Source: Vulcanimicrobiota bacterium (GTDB lineage Bacteria; Vulcanimicrobiota; Vulcanimicrobiia; Vulcanimicrobiales; Vulcanimicrobiaceae). From it: a DNA stretch of 64,000 nt. Below the pieces are notes generated by a model. That model searched no databases and had not been told where the DNA came from. It worked only from the letters and a program-made list of their open reading frames with translations. Positions within the stretch are counted from its first letter, which is position 1. The number at the start of each line of letters is the position of its first letter. Positions 2,927 to 12,048 of this stretch are shown piece after piece. The DNA lies in the NCBI GenBank assembly GCA_963833095.1, contig CAWHWQ010000005.1:448001-512000 (forward strand). Reading direction: 5' to 3'. The position numbers and the translations under genes are program-made.

Positions 2927-4593
2927 GAGCAAACCTCCGTAGTGGTAACCGCGCCATGCGCGGCCGAGCCGACCGTCGCGGCATATTTGGCAAAAACACC
3001 GCCCCGGTAAAGCGGCTCGGGTGCGCGCCAAGCGCGCAAACGCTCAGCGATCACCGATGTTGCAACAGCGAGATCGAGCGTACGTGCCTCGACGTCGATC
3101 ACGATCTCATCGCCGTCGCGTATCGCGGCGATTGGGCCGCCCACCGCGGCTTCGGGCGCGACGTGACCGATCATAAGCCCGCGCGTGCCGCCGCTAAAAC
3201 GGCCGTCGGTTACCATGGCTACGGTCTCGCCGAGGCCCGCGCCCACGATTGCGCTTGTGACGCTGAGCATCTCGCGCATGCCCGGGCCGCCTTTGGGCCC
3301 CTCGTACGCGATAACGACAACGTCACCGGGTGAAATGGTGTCGTCGAGAATCGCTTGCATCGCGGCTTCCTCTGAGTTGAACACGCGCGCGGGACCACGG
3401 TGATAGGGCCGCTCCGACCCCGCGATCTTGACGACTGCCCCCGACGGCGCGAGATTGCCTTTGAGAATGACGAGGCCTCCGTGCGGTTTGAACGGATGCT
3501 CCGCGGTTGCGATCACGACTTGGCCCGGCGTCTCCACCGCGCTCTCGACCTCAACTGCAAAGCTGCGTCCGGTTGCGGTCATAACGGTCGTGTCGACCAG
3601 ATGTCCCTCGGCGAGACGTTTGCCGATGAGCTGTGTTCCGCCGGCGGCATCAACATCGAGCGCGACGTATTTGCCGCCCGGGCGCAGGTCCGCAATGATC
3701 GGCGTCCGCCGGCTCACCGTATCAAAGTCCTCGATCGCTAGCGGCGTGCCGGCTTCGTGCGCGATCCCGAGCAGATGCAGCACACTATTGGTCGAGCCGC
3801 CGGTCGCCGCCGCGGCCGCGATCGCATTCAAAAACGAGGCCCGCGTGAGAAGGTCGCGCGGGCGGACGTTTTTCGCAAGCAATTCCATGACGATGACCCC
3901 CGCGTCGTGGGCCCATTGCTCGCGTCGCTTCGACGTTGCTCCCGGACTCGCGCTGCCGATTGGGGAGAGCCCGAGATACTCCATGACCATTGCCATCGTG
4001 TTCGCGGTATACTGCCCACCGCAGGCGCCCGGCCCGGGACAAGCATTATCCTCGATCGCCTTGAGTTGCCCGTCGTCGATCGTGCCACGCGCGTGCGCGC
4101 CGATCGCTTCGAAGACGTCGATGATCGTGAGGTCCTTGCCGTCGAGTTTTCCCGGTGCGATCGACCCGCCGTAGATGATGACCGAAGGCAGATTCAAACG
4201 CGCAAAAGCCATTGCGGTCCCGGGAATGGTCTTGTCGCAGCCGACCAGGCCGACCATCGCATCGAAGTAATGCGAACGCCCGATCAGTTCGATCGAATCG
4301 GCGATCACCTCGCGGCTGATGAGCGAGCCTTTCATGCCCTGCGTACCCATCGTGATGCCGTCGCTGATTGCGATCGTGTTGAACTCCATCGGCGTGCCGC
4401 CCGCGGCGCGCACGCCCTCCTTGACACGTTCGGCTAATTCGCGCAGGTGATAGCCGCACGGCATAGTCTCGACCCACGTGTTGGCGATACCAACAAGCGG
4501 TTTACGCAGGTCGTCGTCGGTAAACCCATTGGCTTTGAACATCGCGCGCGCCGCCGCGCGAGTGGCGCCCTGCGTGAGCGTGTGACTCAACAT
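2923..4593 (-). CDS. ilvD: Dihydroxy-acid dehydratase
   Basis: [58 protein letters not shown]. Confidence 0.95.
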
Positions 4594-5636: not shown

Positions 5637-5845
5637 TCCATGGTCTCCCTGTCATCATCGAGGAGTTTGGTGATTTGGGCGTCGAGGCGGCGCAACGCAT
5701 CGCCGGGACCAGCGAAGGCGAATTCCATGCGATACTGAGCGCCGGTGTGTTCGGAGGCTACGCTTGTATACGAGCAGCCGAACCGGTGAGCGAGGTGTAT
5801 TATGCGGGCGAGGATGCGCCCATCGTTAGCGGTGACGGTTCTCAC
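5633..5845 (-). CDS. ilvN: Acetolactate synthase small (ACT) subunit, minimal 70-aa form
   Basis: Translationally coupled between ilvB and ilvC; ACT-like [15 protein letters not shown]...[11 protein letters not shown]. Confidence 0.7.
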
Positions 5846-7530
5846 GCCGGAAGCGCTTCCATCAAATCGTCGACGCCTTTACCGGACGGGATGATCGGCC
5901 AGACGTTCTCGTGCGGGAAACACGCACAGTGCAGCAGCATCGGTCCAGGTGACTCGAGCATCCGCGCGATTGCAGCGCCGATCGCATTGACGTTATCGAC
6001 CAAACGCGATTCGATGCCGTAGGCACGCGCGATCGTCGTGAATTCCGGATTATCGGGCAGCGCGGTCGCCGAGTAGCGTCCGCTGTAGAAGAGTTCTTGC
6101 CACTGCCGCACCATGCCGAGGTTGCGGTTATCGAGCAGAATGATCTTCACCGGAAGTTCGTGGCGGCGTAGGGTCGCAAGCTCGGCCATCGACATCTGGA
6201 ATCCGCCGTCGCCCACGATCGCGACCACCATGCGACCCGGGTGCGCCATCTGGGCGCCGATCGCCGCCGGTAGACCGAAGCCCATCGAACCGAGGCCGCC
6301 GGAGGTGAGGAAATGTTGCGGATGGCTGGCGCGCACGCGCTGCGCTGCCCACATTTGATGTTGACCGACGTCCGTTGCCACGATCGCATCCTCGGGCAGC
6401 GCGGCAAACAGCGCATCGAGGAAATCGGTCGCGGAGAGATGGTCGTGGCGCGCGTCGTCGCGCGGCAGCTGTTCTTGCGGTGCGCACGCGGCGCTACGCC
6501 ACTCTTCAAAAGAGGGCAAGGTCACACGCGCAAGGCGATGATCGAGCGCAGCCAGGGTTTCACGCAGGTCGCCATGCAGCGTGATCTGCGCGCGCACGAC
6601 CTTATTGAACTCGGCTTTGTCGATATCGGCGTGAACGATCGTGTGCGCGTTCGGTGCGAACTTGGCGGGATCGCCGGTCACCCGGTCGTCAAAACGCATG
6701 CCTAGCGCGAAGATCACATCGGCCTTGGACACCGCAAGGTTCGCGCGCTTCCATCCGTGCATTCCAAGCATGCCGACAAATGCCGGGTCGCCTGGGTCAG
6801 CGCATCCAAGGCCGTGCAGGGTCGACGCGATCGGCGCGCCGATGTGCGCCGCAAGGGCGCGAAAGATCTCCGTCGCGCCGGACCAGCGCGCGCCGCCACC
6901 CACAATGAGCACCGGCCGCTTCGCGCCCTCGAGCGCGGCAACCGCGGCATCGAGCGACCGGGCATCGGCGCGCGGCCGTTCGCGCACGGGCGTTTGCGGG
7001 ACTGCGGGTTTGCGCTGCTCTTCTTCGAACGCGCGCAACACGTCGGTCGGAAGATCGACGAGGACCGGCCCCGGGCGATCGCTCGTGGCCAGACGAAAGG
7101 CCGCGCGCAGCGCCGGCTCGATCTGCTCGATCGAGCGCACTACGATGTTGCGTTTGGTCACCTGGTGGGTGATAGCCGCTACGTCGACTTCCTGGAACGC
7201 GTCGGTTCCCATCACCGTGCTGCGCACCTGGCCGGTAAGGGCCACGAGCGGCACGTTATCCATCATTGCATCCACGATGCCGGTGATCAGATTCGTCGCG
7301 CCCGGACCGGAGGTCGCGATGCACACACCCGGACGGCCGGTCGAGCGCGCGAACCCGCTGGCAGCAAAAACAGCCGCGGCTTCGTGACGTACGAGCACGT
7401 GCGCAATACGATGATCGTAGAGTGCATCGTAGAGGGGCATGATCGCGCCGCCCGGATAGCCGAACACTGTTTCGACTCCCAAGCTCTCGAGTGTATCGAG
7501 AACGATCGCTGCGCCCGTGCGCGTGTGCAC
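5842..7530 (-). CDS. ilvB: Acetolactate synthase large subunit
   Basis: FGYPGGAIMP, RHE, TSGPGATN, GMLGMHG, DVGQHQMW, GDGGFQM (TPP motif), LGMVRQWQ. Confidence 0.95.
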   Translation of the reverse strand: MHTRTGAAIVLDTLESLGVETVFGYPGGAIMPLYDALYDHRIAHVLVRHEAAAVFAASGFARSTGRPGVCIATSGPGATNLITGIVDAMMDNVPLVALTGQVRSTVMGTDAFQEVDVAAITHQVTKRNIVVRSIEQIEPALRAAFRLATSDRPGPVLVDLPTDVLRAFEEEQRKPAVPQTPVRERPRADARSLDAAVAALEGAKRPVLIVGGGARWSGATEIFRALAAHIGAPIASTLHGLGCADPGDPAFVGMLGMHGWKRANLAVSKADVIFALGMRFDDRVTGDPAKFAPNAHTIVHADIDKAEFNKVVRAQITLHGDLRETLAALDHRLARVTLPSFEEWRSAACAPQEQLPRDDARHDHLSATDFLDALFAALPEDAIVATDVGQHQMWAAQRVRASHPQHFLTSGGLGSMGFGLPAAIGAQMAHPGRMVVAIVGDGGFQMSMAELATLRRHELPVKIILLDNRNLGMVRQWQELFYSGRYSATALPDNPEFTTIARAYGIESRLVDNVNAIGAAIARMLESPGPMLLHCACFPHENVWPIIPSGKGVDDLMEALPA

Positions 7531-7701: not shown

Positions 7702-7731
7702 ACCCTACCATGGGCCAACTCCGACTGTCAA
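7702..7731 (-). promoter_or_regulatory. Sigma70-type promoter of the ilv leader
   Basis: TTGACA-18 nt-TAGGGT with extended TGn, 8 nt before the leader ATG. Confidence 0.65.
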
Positions 7732-8861
7732 GCGGCATAGCGCCGTCCCCGCCAGATAACCCCGCCGCGCGCATGCGCAACAACCGAAGTCACGAAAATC
7801 GCCACAACCAGCGTAATACCGATCGGTAGGTACCACGACGACCAGCGCCCCAAGCCGAGGCGTCGCATGCCCGACGATGCACCCACGATTGCGCAGAGCA
7901 TGGCAAGCGCGAGCGCTGCAGCCGCGGCTTCGGCCTTCACCACGAGCGCCACAACGACCGCGATCGGTGTAACCGGCGCCACGCACGCCAGCAAAATGAT
8001 CCCAAGCGCGGCAAAGGTCCCCTGATCGCGCGCGGCGACCCAGAAATTCTTTACGAAGCCCTGCCAGAGTTCGCCGAATGAGCGATACATGCGCACCCGG
8101 ATGAGCCCGTCGCCGTTGACGAGCGCGGTACGAAAGCGCCCGTCGCTCTTGAAGCGGCGCGCAAGCTCGAGATCCTCGGCGATCTCGCTGCGAACCGCCT
8201 CGTGACCGCCGATCGCCTCATATGCGCGGCGGACCGCGAGTATATATTGGCCGTTGAAGAGCGCGTTCTCACGAGCCGGGTCGTTGATCGCGCGCAGCGA
8301 CCCGATCGCAAACGCGATCGTCCAGAGAATGCTGGGAAGAAAGATCCGTTCGGCCGGCGTTATCATGATCTGCTCGGTCAACACACTAAGCACGTCGAGA
8401 TTGTGCGCTCGCGCATAAGTGAGGGAAGCGCTGGTGGCGCCGGGTTCGTGTTGCGTGTCGGCATCGGTGAAGAGCAGCCAATCCCCGCGCGCGTGCTGTG
8501 CGCCTTGGTGCAGAGCCCAAGGCTTTCCCACCCAACCGCTCGGTAGGATCTCTCCGGCAATCAATCGCACGCGCGGATCCTCGCCTGCAATGCGCGCGAC
8601 GATGGCGGCAGTGTCGTCCTCCGATCGATCGTCCACGACGATGATTTCGACATGCGGATAGTTTTGCGCGAGGAGTGACCGCACGCATTGCTCGATTTGC
8701 CGCGCCTCGTTGCGCGCCGGGACGATGATGCTGATCTCAGGCGCAACCTTTGGCGGAGGCACCGATTCGAGCGCAAAGCGCGAACGAAACGCGATGTGCT
8801 GACTGCGAAATGCGAACGCCAGATTGATGAGGACCAGCAGCGCAACGATCGTCACAAGCAT
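7728..8861 (-). CDS. Family 2 glycosyltransferase (CrtQ/HpnB-like, membrane-anchored)
   Basis: IIVPARNE, VDDRSEDDT, GWVGKPWAL, FTDAD, NGQY, AEDLELA, VRMY; N- and C-terminal TM segments; start taken at MLVTIV. Confidence 0.88.
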   Translation of the reverse strand: MLVTIVALLVLINLAFAFRSQHIAFRSRFALESVPPPKVAPEISIIVPARNEARQIEQCVRSLLAQNYPHVEIIVVDDRSEDDTAAIVARIAGEDPRVRLIAGEILPSGWVGKPWALHQGAQHARGDWLLFTDADTQHEPGATSASLTYARAHNLDVLSVLTEQIMITPAERIFLPSILWTIAFAIGSLRAINDPARENALFNGQYILAVRRAYEAIGGHEAVRSEIAEDLELARRFKSDGRFRTALVNGDGLIRVRMYRSFGELWQGFVKNFWVAARDQGTFAALGIILLACVAPVTPIAVVVALVVKAEAAAAALALAMLCAIVGASSGMRRLGLGRWSSWYLPIGITLVVAIFVTSVVAHARGGVIWRGRRYAA

Positions 8862-8921
8862 TGAGGCACGAGTTCCGTCAGCACTTGTCGTCAACCCGCC
8901 AAAGCGGGATAGAGAGGGGCT

Positions 8922-9079
8922 GGGGCGCTTCGATGGTGTCGACCGCCGATCTGATACACCGCGCGGCTCCGGGTTCGATTCCCGGGCGCTCCAGCCGCGA
9001 TGTCCCACCCGGCGTTGCGAAGTCGTCCGACGTGTGGTATCGTCGGCCATGTATCAGGTCGGCGGACACATCGAAGCGC
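8922..9079 (+). ncRNA. Structured ncRNA candidate (6S-like rod or Y-RNA-like tRNA mimic)
   Basis: 8925-8958 pairs with 9050-9079; interior holds a perfect T-arm CCGGG-TTCGATT-CCCGG and a hairpin CCGACG-TGTGGTAT-CGTCGG; followed by a terminator-like hairpin. Confidence 0.62.
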
Positions 9080-9115
9080 ACGAGGCGCCGCAGCAATGCG
9101 GCGCTTCGTCTTTCT
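9080..9115 (+). terminator. Terminator-like hairpin after the ncRNA
   Basis: ACGAGGCGCCGCA-GCAA-TGCGGCGCTTCGT followed by CTTTCT. Confidence 0.6.
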
Positions 9116-9166
9116 ATTGGTCATACCAATGACGACCGTTGCGGCAAGGCTCTGTTTGCCCGGCCA

Positions 9167-9865
9167 ATGAACACCCTGCGGATGAGTCGTGAGGTTCACG
9201 TCTATTCGCATGGTTCGACGCTTGCAAAGTGGCGGCAGATCATCGAAATTGCGGCGCTGGTCGCTGCCGGGGTCTGGGCCTTCTACGTCTTCGTCTATAA
9301 AGAGCGCATCAAGCCCGCGGGCGAAGCCCCGAATATCCAGATCCTGCGCTCCGCCACGCACGAGGCGCTTCCCCGCGGCAAAGAACTCGTGACCGTCATC
9401 ATCACGCTGAAGAACATCGGAACGGCTAACGTGGAGATGGGCGGTCTCATCGTCAACGCCTATGGGATCCGCTACGGCGATCGGATCGACAGCGCAGCGC
9501 CCGCTACGCGCACAACCGGCCTTATGACGGCAAATCACGGGCTCGTGGATTCCAAGCCCGTGCTTCTCTACACCTACTCCGCGATTTGGATTCCACTCGG
9601 CTCAGCGCGTCCGTTCAAGATCCTCTCGGGCGACACGTTCACGATTCCAATGTCGTTCGTGATCCAGAGCGGCTCCTATGACACACTGCGTCTGAACTTT
9701 GCACGGTGCGATCAGCGCGCCGACAATCTGCTCGTCACGCGCTACCTGCCGCGGATTTTGAAAGACGGATCCTTCGACGTGTCCTCAATGATCGCGCAAG
9801 ACGGTGCGCATTCGGGGCTCGAGTGCGGCGGAACATTATATACGGGCGGAGAGTTCGCCCTGTAG
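9167..9865 (+). CDS. Hypothetical single-TM membrane protein
   Basis: TM helix IIEIAALVAAGVWAFYVFVY then a beta-rich domain; start uncertain (9167 or 9182). Confidence 0.7.
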   Translation: MNTLRMSREVHVYSHGSTLAKWRQIIEIAALVAAGVWAFYVFVYKERIKPAGEAPNIQILRSATHEALPRGKELVTVIITLKNIGTANVEMGGLIVNAYGIRYGDRIDSAAPATRTTGLMTANHGLVDSKPVLLYTYSAIWIPLGSARPFKILSGDTFTIPMSFVIQSGSYDTLRLNFARCDQRADNLLVTRYLPRILKDGSFDVSSMIAQDGAHSGLECGGTLYTGGEFAL

Positions 9866-9866
9866 C

Positions 9867-9941
9867 TCCACGCCCCGTTGCGCAGCCGCCGCAGGCGTGT
9901 ATCGTGGGTTTTGTATCAGGCCTGCAGACACATCGAAGCGC
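9867..9941 (+). repeat. Degenerate direct repeat of the 3' half of the ncRNA (about 9004-9079)
   Basis: 9912-9941 matches 9050-9079 at 27/30 nt; weaker similarity (CCAC..CGTTGCG.AG.CG..GTATCGT.GG) extends to about 9867. Confidence 0.8.
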
Positions 9942-9942
9942 G

Positions 9943-11028
9943 CTAGGCGTCGGCTTTATGTGCTTTGGGTTGCGTTTCGGCGCGGAGTTGACCGCACGCA
10001 GCCGCGATGTCGCGTCCCATATTCTTGCGCACCGTTGTCGGCACGCCGGCCTTGTCGAGCACCGCCGCAAATTGCCAGATGCGAGCGTCCGTTGTTCCAG
10101 CGAACGGGCCGTCGGGCGTCGTGTTATACGGAATTAAATTGACGTGATAGAGGTTGCCGCGCATCAACTCGGCGAGTTCGCGCGCGCATTCCAAGGAATC
10201 GTTGACCCCTTCGAGCATCACGTACTCGAAGAACACTTTGCGGTTGGTCTTCGCTACGTAGCGCTCGCACGCCGCCATCAATTCTTCCAATGGAAACTTC
10301 CGGTTGACCGGCATGAACGCACTGCGCACCCGGCCGTTCGGCGCATGTAGTGAGATCGCGAGATTGACTTGCAGACCCTCGTCGGCGAAGCGATCGATTT
10401 TGTCGACCAGTCCCACGGTTGAAATCGTGATATGACGATGTCCCAAACCCAAACCGTGCGGATCGTGGAGCAGGGCGACCGCTCCCATCACCGCGTCGTA
10501 ATTGTGGAAGGGCTCACCCATGCCCATGAACACGACGTTGGTGATTCGTTTGTCGCGCGTTGCAAGCTCGCGCGCAAAGTAGCGCGCTTGATCGAAGATT
10601 TCGCGCGAGGTTAGGTTGCGCGTGAATCCGGCCTGCCCGGTCGAGCAGAAGGCGCAGGCAAACGCGCAACCGGCTTGCGAGGAGATGCACACCGTGGTGC
10701 GGTCGCCGCGATGCTCCATCAGCACCGCTTCGACTTCGTTGCCGTCGTGCAGGCGGAACAGCCCTTTGGTGGTCTGCGCGTCGTTCGAGCGCTGGACCAC
10801 TACTGGTGCGACCGACGTAAAGGAGAAGCCGCGTTGCTCGAGCGTTTCGCGCAGTTCTTTGGGCAGCGTCGTTACGTCGCCGATCGCACCGAGCAGCTCC
10901 TTATTTGCGGCACGGTAGATCTGCTTGAGGCGATAGTTTTTGAGGTCGAGTGCGCGCGAGAAGTCATCCGCATCGGCGAAGCCGATATCACGCGCCACCT
11001 CGTCGAACCAAATGGTTTGGGCGTCCAT
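9943..11028 (-). CDS. rlmN: Dual-specificity RNA methyltransferase RlmN
   Basis: CISSQAGCAFACAFCSTG, FMGMGEP, ISTVG, SLHA, NLIPYN, DIAAACGQL. Confidence 0.94.
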   Translation of the reverse strand: MDAQTIWFDEVARDIGFADADDFSRALDLKNYRLKQIYRAANKELLGAIGDVTTLPKELRETLEQRGFSFTSVAPVVVQRSNDAQTTKGLFRLHDGNEVEAVLMEHRGDRTTVCISSQAGCAFACAFCSTGQAGFTRNLTSREIFDQARYFARELATRDKRITNVVFMGMGEPFHNYDAVMGAVALLHDPHGLGLGHRHITISTVGLVDKIDRFADEGLQVNLAISLHAPNGRVRSAFMPVNRKFPLEELMAACERYVAKTNRKVFFEYVMLEGVNDSLECARELAELMRGNLYHVNLIPYNTTPDGPFAGTTDARIWQFAAVLDKAGVPTTVRKNMGRDIAAACGQLRAETQPKAHKADA

Positions 11029-11036
11029 AGCGCCCC

Positions 11037-11045
11037 ATTATATCA
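11037..11045 (-). promoter_or_regulatory. Extended -10 element directly before rlmN
   Basis: TG-A-TATAAT-GGGGCGCT-ATG with no SD sequence. Confidence 0.55.
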
Positions 11046-11699
11046 GAAGAGGCTCGCTTGCTCAGGCGGCTGTTCCGGCATCACCGGCGCCTCGTCGATC
11101 TTGGTTCGAACGGCCTTGAGGTCCGCCCAAACCATGCGCTTGACCGCCGTGAGCTCTCCGCCCGTTTGGCGGAGCACGTAGGCCGGATGGAAGGTGACCA
11201 TCAACGGAATGCCTGCCGGCCCGTCATACCAACGTCCGCGCATCTTCGTTATTTGAAAGTCGCGACCGAGAAACGATTTTGCCGCGGGGGCGCCCAGCGC
11301 CATGATCACGCGCGGTTGGATGATGTCGATTTGTTCGTCGAGGAACGGACGGCAATTCGCCATCTCGGTCAAATCCGGCGCGCGGTTTTTGGGTCCGCGC
11401 GGACCCGGCATCGTGGGCCGGCATTTGACCGTGTTGCAGATGTAGACTTCCTCGCGCGCAAAGCCGATTGCCGCGAGCATCTTATCGAGCAGTTGGCCCG
11501 CGCGGCCCACGAACGGCCGACCGAGCAGATCTTCGGTCTCGCCTGGGCCTTCGCCGATCACCATCAAACTCGCGCACGGATCGCCTTCCCCATACACATT
11601 GTTGCGACGCTGCGATCCGATCTCGCACTTGCGACACGCCGCGGCGACGCCGGCGCCATGCGCGAGCAATCGCTCGCGCCGTGCGCGCTCCTCAAGCAT
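11043..11699 (-). CDS. Family 4 uracil-DNA glycosylase
   Basis: CRKC, GEGPG, GRPFVGRAGQLL, NTVKCRP, TFHPAY. Confidence 0.92.
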   Translation of the reverse strand: MLEERARRERLLAHGAGVAAACRKCEIGSQRRNNVYGEGDPCASLMVIGEGPGETEDLLGRPFVGRAGQLLDKMLAAIGFAREEVYICNTVKCRPTMPGPRGPKNRAPDLTEMANCRPFLDEQIDIIQPRVIMALGAPAAKSFLGRDFQITKMRGRWYDGPAGIPLMVTFHPAYVLRQTGGELTAVKRMVWADLKAVRTKIDEAPVMPEQPPEQASLF

Positions 11700-12048
11700 C
11701 GCCGGGTCCGTTCGGCACGGCCAGCACGGCTTCGCCGAAGGCAACGATCTTGCACGATCCGTCCGGACTTTCGCTGACGTGAAAACTGAGACCGATCACC
11801 GCGTTTGCCCCGACCTGGTTCGCGCGCGCGTAGATGCCCTCGAGCGCCTCCCCACGGAGTTGCTCGGCATCGCTGATGAACTCGCCCGGGGCGACGCCGA
11901 TCAGCATTCCAAGGCTGCGAAACGTCGCGCGAAGCCGGTTTCGCGGTCGCGACGCGACACCGGAGACATACCCGTAGCGCTTGACGATCTGATACCCTTC
12001 GAGTTCATCGAAGGTCACGACCGCCTCGGGCGCAATCATTCCCGTCAT
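11692..12048 (-). CDS. YbjQ/UPF0145 family protein
   Basis: VVTFDELEGYQI...GANAVIGL...VAFGEAV pattern; start at 12048 or 12039. Confidence 0.8.
   Translation of the reverse strand: MTGMIAPEAVVTFDELEGYQIVKRYGYVSGVASRPRNRLRATFRSLGMLIGVAPGEFISDAEQLRGEALEGIYARANQVGANAVIGLSFHVSESPDGSCKIVAFGEAVLAVPNGPGDA

Follow-up and report, generated by a model that had tools for sequence, protein, structure and literature searches.

Does a 72-nucleotide (nt) stretch of DNA that can be drawn as an alanine tRNA (tRNA-Ala), or as the tRNA-like part of a transfer-messenger RNA (tmRNA), belong to a functional RNA, or does it reflect chance pairing in GC-rich DNA? The question is raised by a locus in a 64,000-nt window, by which we mean the whole stretch of DNA that was analysed (Vulcanimicrobiota bacterium, GenBank assembly GCA_963833095.1, contig CAWHWQ010000005.1, forward-strand positions 448,001 to 512,000). 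All coordinates given below without a contig name are positions in this window. An initial annotation had described the 72-nt fold as a competitor of a long stem formed by the same RNA, and had allowed for chance pairing. Comparison among homologous sequences indicates that the fold is genuine and excludes chance as its origin. It lies within a unit of ~195 nt that comprises, in this order, a non-canonical promoter, the tRNA-like domain (TLD), a hairpin, an internal sigma70-type promoter, a strand complementary to the TLD (anti-TLD), and a terminator. The RNA family is previously undescribed and is absent from Rfam. The unit is probably a switchable tRNA mimic, and we assign a probability of roughly 55% to the reading that it is an antisense-gated mimic of tRNA or tmRNA with alanine identity.

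The tRNA-like domain and its conservation

The TLD occupies positions 8922–8993 of the forward strand and reads GGGGCGC-UU-CGAUGGUGUCGA-C-[CGCCGA UCUGAUACA CCG(C)GCG]-GCU-[CCGGG UUCGAUU CCCGG]-GCGCUCC-A. Its 7-bp acceptor stem joins GGGGCGC (8922–8928) to GCGCTCC (8986–8992) through the pairs G1:C72, G2:C71, G3:U70, G4:C69, C5:G68, G6:C67 and C7:G66, and is followed by the discriminator A8993 (A73), exactly as initially annotated. According to passages of PMC3968760, G3:U70 and A73 make up the set by which alanyl-tRNA synthetase (AlaRS) identifies tRNA-Ala and tmRNA. The D-arm (8930–8942) consists of a 4-bp UCGA/UCGA stem closed by a 5-nt UGGUG loop, while the T-arm (8969–8985, CCGGG-TTCGATT-CCCGG) is placed directly 5′ of the 3′ strand of the acceptor. 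The domain had been described as lacking an anticodon arm, which proved incorrect, since an arm of six pairs with a bulge and a 9-nt loop is present in the middle (H2 or anticodon) position at 8944–8965. The 3′ end of the TLD, up to A8993, reads ...GCGCUCCA and is followed by GCC, which confirms that CCA is not encoded. The reported lack of a tag open reading frame (ORF) also held: neither a tag ORF nor an mRNA-like domain was seen in the TLD on inspection, ARAGORN gave no tag peptide, and the T-arm begins 3 nt past the middle arm.

Taken by itself, the window copy is of ordinary stability (-32.4 kcal/mol, z = -1.04, with 29 of 200 shuffled sequences equally stable), and a single sequence is therefore unable to exclude chance pairing. 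Homologs were gathered by a 5′ pattern starting with GGGG, at least six of seven acceptor pairs, and a T-loop motif; the filter demanded neither U70 nor A73. After removal of two false positives (L096 and L113), 80 distinct TLDs remained, and this is the set used below unless stated otherwise. The cloverleaf is 97.6% paired across these homologs and 12 of its 22 pairs show changes on both sides, values that were matched by none of 500 shuffles and that lay far above those of slid and shuffled controls. Pairing reaches 99.8% in the acceptor and 99.5% in the T-arm. The pairs G1:C72, G2:C71 and G3:U70 are kept in all 80 sequences, and A73 in 79. The lower acceptor pairs undergo double compensatory changes, from CG to AU at 5:68 (nine sequences), at 6:67 (one sequence), and from CG to UA (23 sequences) or GC (three sequences) at 7:66. 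Compensatory switches between CG and GC and between GC and AU occur in the T-stem, and all six pairs of the middle arm vary in a compensatory manner. Throughout the family the middle arm has 6–7 bp and a 9-nt loop, in which no anticodon triplet is conserved. The D-stem UCGA/UCGA is invariant (80/80), and two class-level variants, from the genome family designated f3, carry the compensatory forms UGGA/UCCA and CUCC/GGAG. Applied to 27 full-length units, RNAalifold likewise selects the cloverleaf, together with the hairpin just after it and the terminator. The chance pairing that the initial annotation had considered is excluded by this covariation.

A covariance model built from the 72-nt domain (R1) scores the window TLD at 95.6 bits, the sole strong match in the window. 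A weak R1 match at 4101–4164 on the forward strand (17.5 bits, E 0.08) is probably noise within a coding region. ARAGORN detected no tRNA or tmRNA gene in the window, and a search of the whole window with Rfam at gathering thresholds returned no match. In E-value mode, the TLD region gave sub-threshold matches to mascRNA and tRNA-Sec (21.2 bits each), to Deinococcus Y RNA (15.5 bits) and to tmRNA_permuted (12.9 bits), tRNA-Sec being the highest-scoring member of the tRNA clan.

The antisense strand and the architecture of the unit

The second pairing of the same RNA involves the anti-TLD strand (9050–9079, forward strand), which is complementary to TLD nt 4–37 (8925–8958) apart from two conserved bulges. 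Among 27 full-length units of the window's subfamily, this long stem of 29 pairs is 93.4% paired, with double changes at 11 pairs, and was equalled in none of 500 shuffles. In the window, positions 8915–9095 (181 nt) adopt a long imperfect hairpin as their minimum-energy fold when considered as a single sequence (-101.3 kcal/mol, z = -4.44). The initial annotation had proposed that conservation of both pairings and of G3:U70 among homologs be checked, and both pairings and G3:U70 are indeed kept. As the long stem and the cloverleaf both covary, both folds are under selection, and in the window copy they are alternative ways of pairing one 5′ strand. We are highly confident that this is a real RNA family in which both pairings are functional. 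G3 and U70 remain unpaired in the long-stem fold, and their invariance is therefore not accounted for by the long stem.

The extent of the long stem differs between subfamilies. In a second subfamily (11 sequences) it is 17 bp long and 100% paired, with six double changes, and involves TLD nt 20–37 only; the acceptor, D and T regions could consequently coexist with it, either in a pseudoknot or with an antisense RNA acting in trans. A copy found on a phage contig has a long stem resembling that of subfamily 2, which spares the acceptor, D and T regions. The mutual exclusivity of the two folds that was initially put forward accordingly applies to the window's subfamily, in which the duplex also covers nt 4–19, but not to subfamily 2 or to the phage copy. 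A complement downstream of the TLD was found at 80 of 80 loci, and at 78 of them it pairs better than the best of 30 shuffles. The cognate anti-arm is the best partner of the middle arm at 55 of 80 loci and among the top three at 72 (mean energies in the cognate-specificity test, -30.8 and -18.0 kcal/mol). Sequence comparison thus shows that the variable middle arm of each TLD co-evolves with its own anti-arm. Binding of the small RNA (sRNA) in trans to the folded TLD is predicted to be favourable (ddG -29.9 kcal/mol).

The anti-TLD is preceded by an internal sigma70-type promoter (P2; 9015–9043, forward strand), composed of TTGCGA (9015–9020), a 17-nt spacer with an extended TG (9035–9036), and TATCGT (9038–9043). 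Its predicted start at ~9050 coincides with the first base of the anti-TLD. The signature TTGNNN-N16-18-TANNNT, ending 0–14 nt before the anti-arm, is present at 76 of 80 loci, where shuffles would lead one to expect 0.7; the TG extension occurs at 74. In alignment A1 the TTG, TG, TA and T of P2, and no other columns, are invariant, and the f3 class-level variants have TTGCAT-17-TATAAT and TTGAAA-17-TACATT. An intrinsic terminator follows at 9080–9116 (forward strand), where the terminator scan found a 13-bp stem (9080–9109) with a GCAA loop and then CTTTCTA; it is kept and paired in 27 of 27 sequences. The sRNA predicted to arise from P2 would be ~65 nt long, with ~22 nt at its 5′ end left unstructured. 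On the strength of the promoter signature, the terminator, the orphan copies described below and the favourable pairing, the anti-TLD is predicted to be a separately transcribed small RNA. This bears on the switch suggested in the initial annotation: two alternative folds do exist, but competition need not be confined to the course of transcription, because a strand with its own conserved promoter and stand-alone genes could also act as an antisense RNA in trans.

Upstream of the TLD is a promoter-like region (P1; 8885–8912, forward strand) with TTGTCG (8885–8890), a 17-nt spacer, and a conserved box GGGATAG (8906–8912) without a canonical -10; a promoter scan made no call at P1. The chromosomal copies (80 loci) share cTTG at -38 to -35 and GNGAT(A/G)G at -16 to -10, and a TANNNT -10 is present in none of them. 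The phage copy has a canonical TTGACC-17-TACGAT at the same distance, and the spacing of this promoter places the start of transcription at -3. The conserved but non-canonical promoter region of the chromosomal copies (8884–8921 in the window), compared with the sigma70 promoter of the phage, may reflect the use of an alternative sigma factor or an activator. G is found at -3 in 79 of 80 sequences and U at -1 in 73. The 3-nt leader GCU (8919–8921, forward strand), with its predicted start at G8919, pairs with A8993-G8994-C8995 and lengthens the acceptor helix to 10 bp. Across the set, the leader and trailer pair at -1:73 in 73 of 80, at -2:74 in 76 (CG 59, GC 9, UA 6), and at -3:75 in 79, whereas -4:76 is paired in just 22; RNAalifold gives the same extension. 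With pairing that begins at the predicted start, the primary transcript would open with a 10-bp helix in which A73 is buried. The hairpin directly 3′ of the TLD (8996–9019, forward strand) corresponds to RNAalifold columns 81–91 paired with 99–107, including five compensatory pairs, and its 3′ strand overlaps the -35 of P2. We also observed a conserved module, GGCCGCAAGUA...ACGAGUCGAAC, 50–75 nt upstream of the TLD in several tandem copies (L009, L010, L013, L016, L025 and L026).

Distribution, orphan strands and genomic setting

A BLAST search with positions 8915–9110 gave matches in 39 of 61 related genomes (including the unpublished G036) and in 17 of 17 genomes of the genus. Full-length copies in these relatives are 76–89% identical, number up to seven per genome, and are often arranged in tandem. 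Shorter BLAST matches of ~80 nt (query 7–86) were considered as possible genuine tRNA-Ala genes and rejected, as they represent the second subfamily of the same RNA (GGGGAGU.../ACUCUCCA), which is found at other loci of the same genomes. A pattern scan of species-representative genomes recovered true members in metagenome-assembled genomes of Eremiobacterota/Vulcanimicrobiota titled Baltobacteraceae, Cybelea, Elarobacter and Aquilonibacter; the remaining pattern matches, located inside genes of unrelated phyla, were attributed to chance. When R1 was run over a sample of 151 genomes of the phylum, 69 were matched at E <= 0.001, including a weak match in the unpublished G048. Matches of at least 45 bits are confined to the families f1 (41 of 71 genomes) and f3, and matches of 30–39 bits outside these families, examined as candidate distant members, are ordinary tRNA-Lys and tRNA-Asp genes. 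Two f3 members that were inspected share almost no primary sequence with the others beyond universal tRNA motifs, and their architecture is complete. By these sequence searches, the family is limited to one class of Eremiobacterota, a group of soil bacteria, in which it is multi-copy and tandem.

A complete unit was also found on the IMG/VR contig IMGVR_UViG_3300047171_000080 (64.5 kb, CheckV completeness 57%). This phage copy scores 93.2 bits with R1, has canonical promoters, and is located among small ORFs of unknown function, ~5 kb from a terminase large-subunit gene. Its fold matches that of the window copy (z = -4.54). A BLAST search of GenBank phages gave no relevant match.

Several units possess an anti-TLD without a TLD. 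The window contains one such orphan at 9868–9952 (forward strand), which BLAST matched to query 91–176 and which is 81% identical over 54 nt to 9037–9090. It has a P2-like promoter (TTGCGC, 9878–9883; TATCGT, 9900–9905) and an anti-TLD at 9913–9941, and abuts the end of an rlmN-like gene; R1 found no match at 9868–9952. A degenerate "TLD" at 9813–9872 was examined and rejected, since this sequence is the 3′ end of a protein gene and the adjoining unit has no TLD. At G000:C2:62063-62122 there is a second orphan anti-TLD, equipped with both a good promoter and a terminator, and the genome thus has three antisense strands in total for one TLD. Similar orphans with promoter and terminator occur in other genomes. 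Family members are also present in contigs assembled from RNA runs of three studies (X6, X19 and X20). Contig ends at 8998/8999 were considered as possible RNA ends and rejected, because they also occur in a DNA run (X1) and correspond to assembly breaks induced by repeats. We found no published account of this RNA in Eremiobacterota, or of a natural bacterial TLD paired with an antisense RNA.

The primary locus has a conserved setting in which a divergent GT2 glycosyltransferase gene (7728–8861, reverse strand, in the window) is followed by one to five RNA units and a convergent gene for an rlmN-like radical S-adenosylmethionine enzyme (radical-SAM; 9943–11028, reverse strand). The rlmN-like gene is common to 20 of 30 loci; L033, from the unpublished G036, is part of this tally. 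Further out are genes for a thiamine pyrophosphate (TPP) enzyme interpreted as the large subunit of acetolactate synthase (5842–7530, reverse strand; an assignment based on Pfam domains of the gene in the corresponding position of G006), and for a family-4 uracil-DNA glycosylase (11043–11744, reverse strand; assigned from the UDG match of its counterpart in G123). All four neighbours are ordinary genes, and their order is kept across genera. Between the two RNA units of the window, ~55 nt after the P2, anti-arm and terminator of the complete unit, lies a gene for a 231-aa membrane-anchored protein with an N-terminal anchor (9170–9865, forward strand), which has no Pfam family and is 88% identical to a homolog in G009. 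In each of the 11 genomes that have an ortholog of this protein (at least 74% identity), the gene is within ~1 kb of an RNA unit, and more distant paralogs (25–43% identity) occur elsewhere. Judging by gene position, we regard the protein as an associated neighbour located between RNA units and claim no role for it in the mechanism.

The genome has a regular ssrA gene at G000:C5:256756-257109(-) (locus L001), with a score of 120.9 bits against the tmRNA model, a tag ANNEYALAA and an encoded CCA; it also has one smpB. The search for the real ssrA that was initially recommended was hence successful, but not with ARAGORN, the program named for it, which misses the gene in both locus and whole-genome runs. 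The T-loop of this ssrA, GGCAGUA, is unusual. ARAGORN identified 41 tRNA genes in the assembly, which is 80.7% complete, and no tRNA-Ala among them. A tRNA-Ile(gat) gene is located 367 nt from the end of contig C3, and the tRNA-Ala of the rRNA operon is therefore probably unassembled. The relatives carry normal tRNA-Ala genes (CGC, UGC and GGC) with sequences unlike the TLD. The ideas that the RNA is the genome's own tmRNA or a substitute for tRNA-Ala were rejected, given the ssrA gene and the tRNA-Ala isoacceptors of the relatives. Eighteen of the 41 tRNA genes have no CCA at the 3′ end reported by ARAGORN. Since genes without CCA are common in this genome, its absence from the TLD is no bar to a tRNA-like function.

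Comparable RNAs, proposed mechanism and alternatives

The nearest known systems are tmRNAs reduced to a TLD, in mycobacteriophage DS6A and in the mitochondria of jakobids; the antisense partner is new. A tmRNA without a coding sequence (CDS) is described in passages of PMC11915505 for DS6A and for two plastid genes of ~65 bp, and a tmRNA without an mRNA-like region in passages of PMC3590771 for jakobid mitochondria. A synthetic TLD molecule similar to that of DS6A inhibits tmRNA, according to the passages of PMC4131195 and PMC11915505 that cite this work (Mao et al., 2009). We located the DS6A TLD at JN698994:28478-28557. Like the units described here, it is phage-carried, ~72–80 nt long, and without a tag ORF or encoded CCA, and it shares G3:U70, A73, the sequence AUGGUG-UCGAC, a closing hairpin in the place where helix 2 would begin, and a canonical T-arm. 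The present family differs from it in being chromosomal as well, multi-copy and tandem, in having a covarying 4-bp D-stem and a 3-bp extension of the acceptor by leader and trailer, and most of all in its co-encoded antisense partner with promoter and terminator. A complement downstream of the DS6A TLD is marginal (-53.8, compared with a shuffle mean of -45.2, sd 3.2, and a best shuffle of -53.1).

The jakobid and plastid forms, as far as they are set out in passages of the two sources, are likewise reduced to a tRNA-Ala-like domain with G3:U70 and A73. Their CCA is added post-transcriptionally, and they are thought to work without tagging (passages of PMC3590771 and PMC11915505). They differ in being the sole tmRNA of their organelle and, in the same passages, mostly two-piece and permuted, whereas the unit in the window is non-permuted, coexists with a full-length ssrA, and has an antisense partner. 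Standard tmRNA (RF00023 and the genome's own ssrA) has the same 5′ pattern GGGG...GG..UCGAC, the same G3:U70 and A73, and a T-arm leading into ...CUCCA. The TLD, by comparison, lacks pseudoknots, a tag ORF and a helix 2 joining the 5′ and 3′ parts, and possesses a D-stem. It also agrees with tRNA-Ala in its 7/5 acceptor/T architecture, G3:U70, A73, U8, D-loop GG, UUCGAUU T-loop and length of 72 nt, but its D-loop has 5 nt, its middle arm has 6–7 bp and a 9-nt loop, no alanine anticodon is present, and ARAGORN does not call it. The mascRNA/MEN-beta family (RF01684; 21.2 bits, gathering threshold 42.5) also comprises a cloverleaf without a conserved anticodon within a longer transcript. It is, however, eukaryotic, forms the 3′ end of a long non-coding RNA, and has neither the G3:U70 identity set nor an antisense partner.

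In antisense modules such as type I hok/sok, CopA/CopT and the type VIII RNA–RNA pairs, a small RNA uses its single-stranded 5′ end to contact a loop of the structured target, and a long duplex results. The present units resemble these modules in cognate specificity, orphan antidotes, multi-copy accessory distribution and a predicted, strongly promoted small RNA. They differ in that the two RNAs follow one another on one strand, as the arms of an inverted repeat, rather than lying on opposite strands, and in that the target is a tRNA mimic that encodes no peptide.

In the mechanism that we propose, the cloverleaf would form first and present the AlaRS identity set on a tRNA-like elbow. It could then be recognised in the manner of tRNA-Ala or tmRNA, with 5′ and 3′ processing, CCA addition, binding of AlaRS, and possibly of SmpB and EF-Tu. 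Charging by AlaRS is a prediction from the identity elements. As a mini-tmRNA-like molecule, the TLD might compete with or modulate ribosome rescue or the users of alanyl-tRNA; titration of SmpB or a diversion of ribosome rescue is a guess by analogy with precedent. Two modes of action are envisaged for the anti-TLD, one in cis, on read-through transcripts, and one in trans, as the ~65-nt sRNA from P2; in either it would nucleate on the 9-nt loop that closes the middle arm and zip into a duplex of 17–30 bp. For the window's subfamily, this duplex would strip away the D-arm and the 5′ acceptor strand, turn the mimic off, and probably mark it for RNase III. To judge by the variable cognate pairs of arm and anti-arm, the orphans, the flux in copy number and the phage copy, the unit looks more like a module of the conflict or addiction type than like a housekeeping RNA. 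A more specific version, to which we give a low probability, is offered tentatively: an RNA-only toxin/antidote or phage–host conflict module that gates ribosome rescue, in which the TLD would titrate SmpB (or AlaRS or EF-Tu) and thereby block or divert trans-translation, cognate sRNAs with a specificity set by the variable middle arm would restrain it, and orphans would provide immunity to incoming TLDs such as those of phages.

Several observations weigh against a gated alanine-identity mimic. The strongest is the conserved, covarying 3-bp helix that starts at the predicted transcription start and pairs A73 with U-1; with A73 buried, the RNA is possibly not matured like a tRNA. The covarying D-stem differs from the stemless D-loop attributed to the tmRNA TLD in passages of PMC3968760. 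RF00023 gave no match at E <= 10 in 8700–9300 (gathering threshold 47 bits), and a genome search with it (E <= 0.001) listed ssrA and not the TLD locus. The same model gives DS6A 34.7 bits, as opposed to no match for the window TLD; R1 scores DS6A at 33.8 bits, which is within the range of ordinary tRNAs (tRNA-Lys and tRNA-Asp, 30–39), so a specific kinship with DS6A is not demonstrated. A simple promoter scan misses P2 of the window (8 of 12 matches, under the threshold), and the contigs from RNA runs cannot show transcript ends, one of them extending 242 nt beyond the terminator. No conserved protein partner adjoins the family beyond the GT2 and rlmN-like synteny, and the neighbours of subfamily 2 are unrelated. 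Lastly, the family is absent from many f1 genomes (41 of 71 matched under strict filters), a patchiness that implies it is dispensable.

The functional product could instead be the antisense sRNA or the long hairpin, with the TLD serving as a processing, stability or sponge module that is never aminoacylated, either through RNase P/Z-type ends as in mascRNA or as a decoy that buffers the sRNA. The sRNA part does have its own promoter and terminator, both conserved, and is found in units that have no TLD, the terminal 10-bp helix does bury A73, mascRNA is the best weak Rfam match (21.2 bits), and no other fold comes close to the long stem in stability. Nevertheless, a handle or sponge needs neither an invariant G3:U70 (80/80) nor A73 (79/80), and the GG and T-loop motifs are also kept across class-level divergence while adjoining pairs vary, which leads us to consider this explanation unlikely. 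We judge it very unlikely that the unit is a cis-regulatory leader, an attenuator with T-box-like logic, controlling read-through into the 231-aa gene with the TLD RNA as effector. The protein gene is indeed placed just 3′ of P2, the anti-arm and the terminator in the window (9043–9170), G002, G006 and G009, and in G001 it is preceded by a partial copy in which anti-arm and terminator have been retained. Most units, however, precede another unit or the convergent rlmN-like gene instead of a co-oriented ORF, the loci of subfamily 2 have unrelated neighbours, the only mapped unit in G011, G014 and G005 lies after the protein gene, and the protein occurs in 17 of 61 relatives compared with 39 of 61 for the RNA.

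Other readings take the tRNA resemblance either literally or not at all. An alanine-charged decoding tRNA that reads non-alanine codons and causes natural mistranslation might be imagined from G3:U70 and A73, from the frequent loop CUGAUAC with the anticodon GAU (Ile), from the U-turn-like YUGA motif in the loop of many members, and from one of 12 paralog loci being called tRNA-Ile(gat) by ARAGORN. The same program rejects the other 11 loci and the window copy, the triplet is variable (GAU, GAC, GUC, CGA and others) and co-varies with the anti-arm, and the middle arm of 6–7 bp with a 9-nt loop and the D-loop of just 5 nt fit such a role poorly; we regard it as highly improbable. A bacterial Y RNA of the YrlA type, with a tRNA-like module and a long stem that binds Ro60/Rsr, would have a comparable long terminal stem and tRNA-like T-arm, and there is a weak match to Deinococcus Y RNA, over the T-arm only (15.5 bits, E 6.4). 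But the stem of a Y RNA is formed by the two RNA ends, whereas here the stem draws on the interior of a TLD that is itself placed 5′-terminally; moreover, TROVE/Ro (PF05731) was not found in the genome itself or in any of 18 genomes of the genus (11 at least 90% complete), in searches whose controls matched. This reading is scarcely credible, and the same can be said of chance pairing, a decayed tRNA or tmRNA gene, or a duplicate of the ssrA 3′ end left by an integrated island. Favouring the latter are the unremarkable stability of the lone 72-mer (z = -1.04) and the existence of partial copies that start at the T-arm or the acceptor 3′ strand; yet covariation in every helix already refutes it, both acceptor halves are present, and the "partial" copies are units whose TLD has been deleted or has degenerated, not att duplications. 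A derivation from the genome's own ssrA, or by att duplication, was rejected because the sequences differ (GGGGCTG... and T-loop GGCAGTA in ssrA).

The relatives of tmRNA that consist of a TLD have so far been isolated cases, namely one mycobacteriophage, jakobid mitochondria and two plastids. The RNA described here forms a whole family, which coexists with a normal tmRNA, is tandem-amplified, occurs in bacteria and in a phage, and comes with a dedicated antisense partner. Should the TLD prove to be charged and to bind SmpB, this would be the first case of bacteria themselves encoding a natural, regulated inhibitor or modulator of trans-translation, and also an RNA–RNA cognate pair that has a tRNA as its scaffold. 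With an uncharged TLD, the unit is still a well-supported bistable RNA in which both conformations covary, which is rare, and it would be a useful model of RNA switches and of antisense recognition via an anticodon-like loop. R1 provides annotators with a covariance model for a widespread and hitherto unannotated RNA of an almost uncultured phylum.

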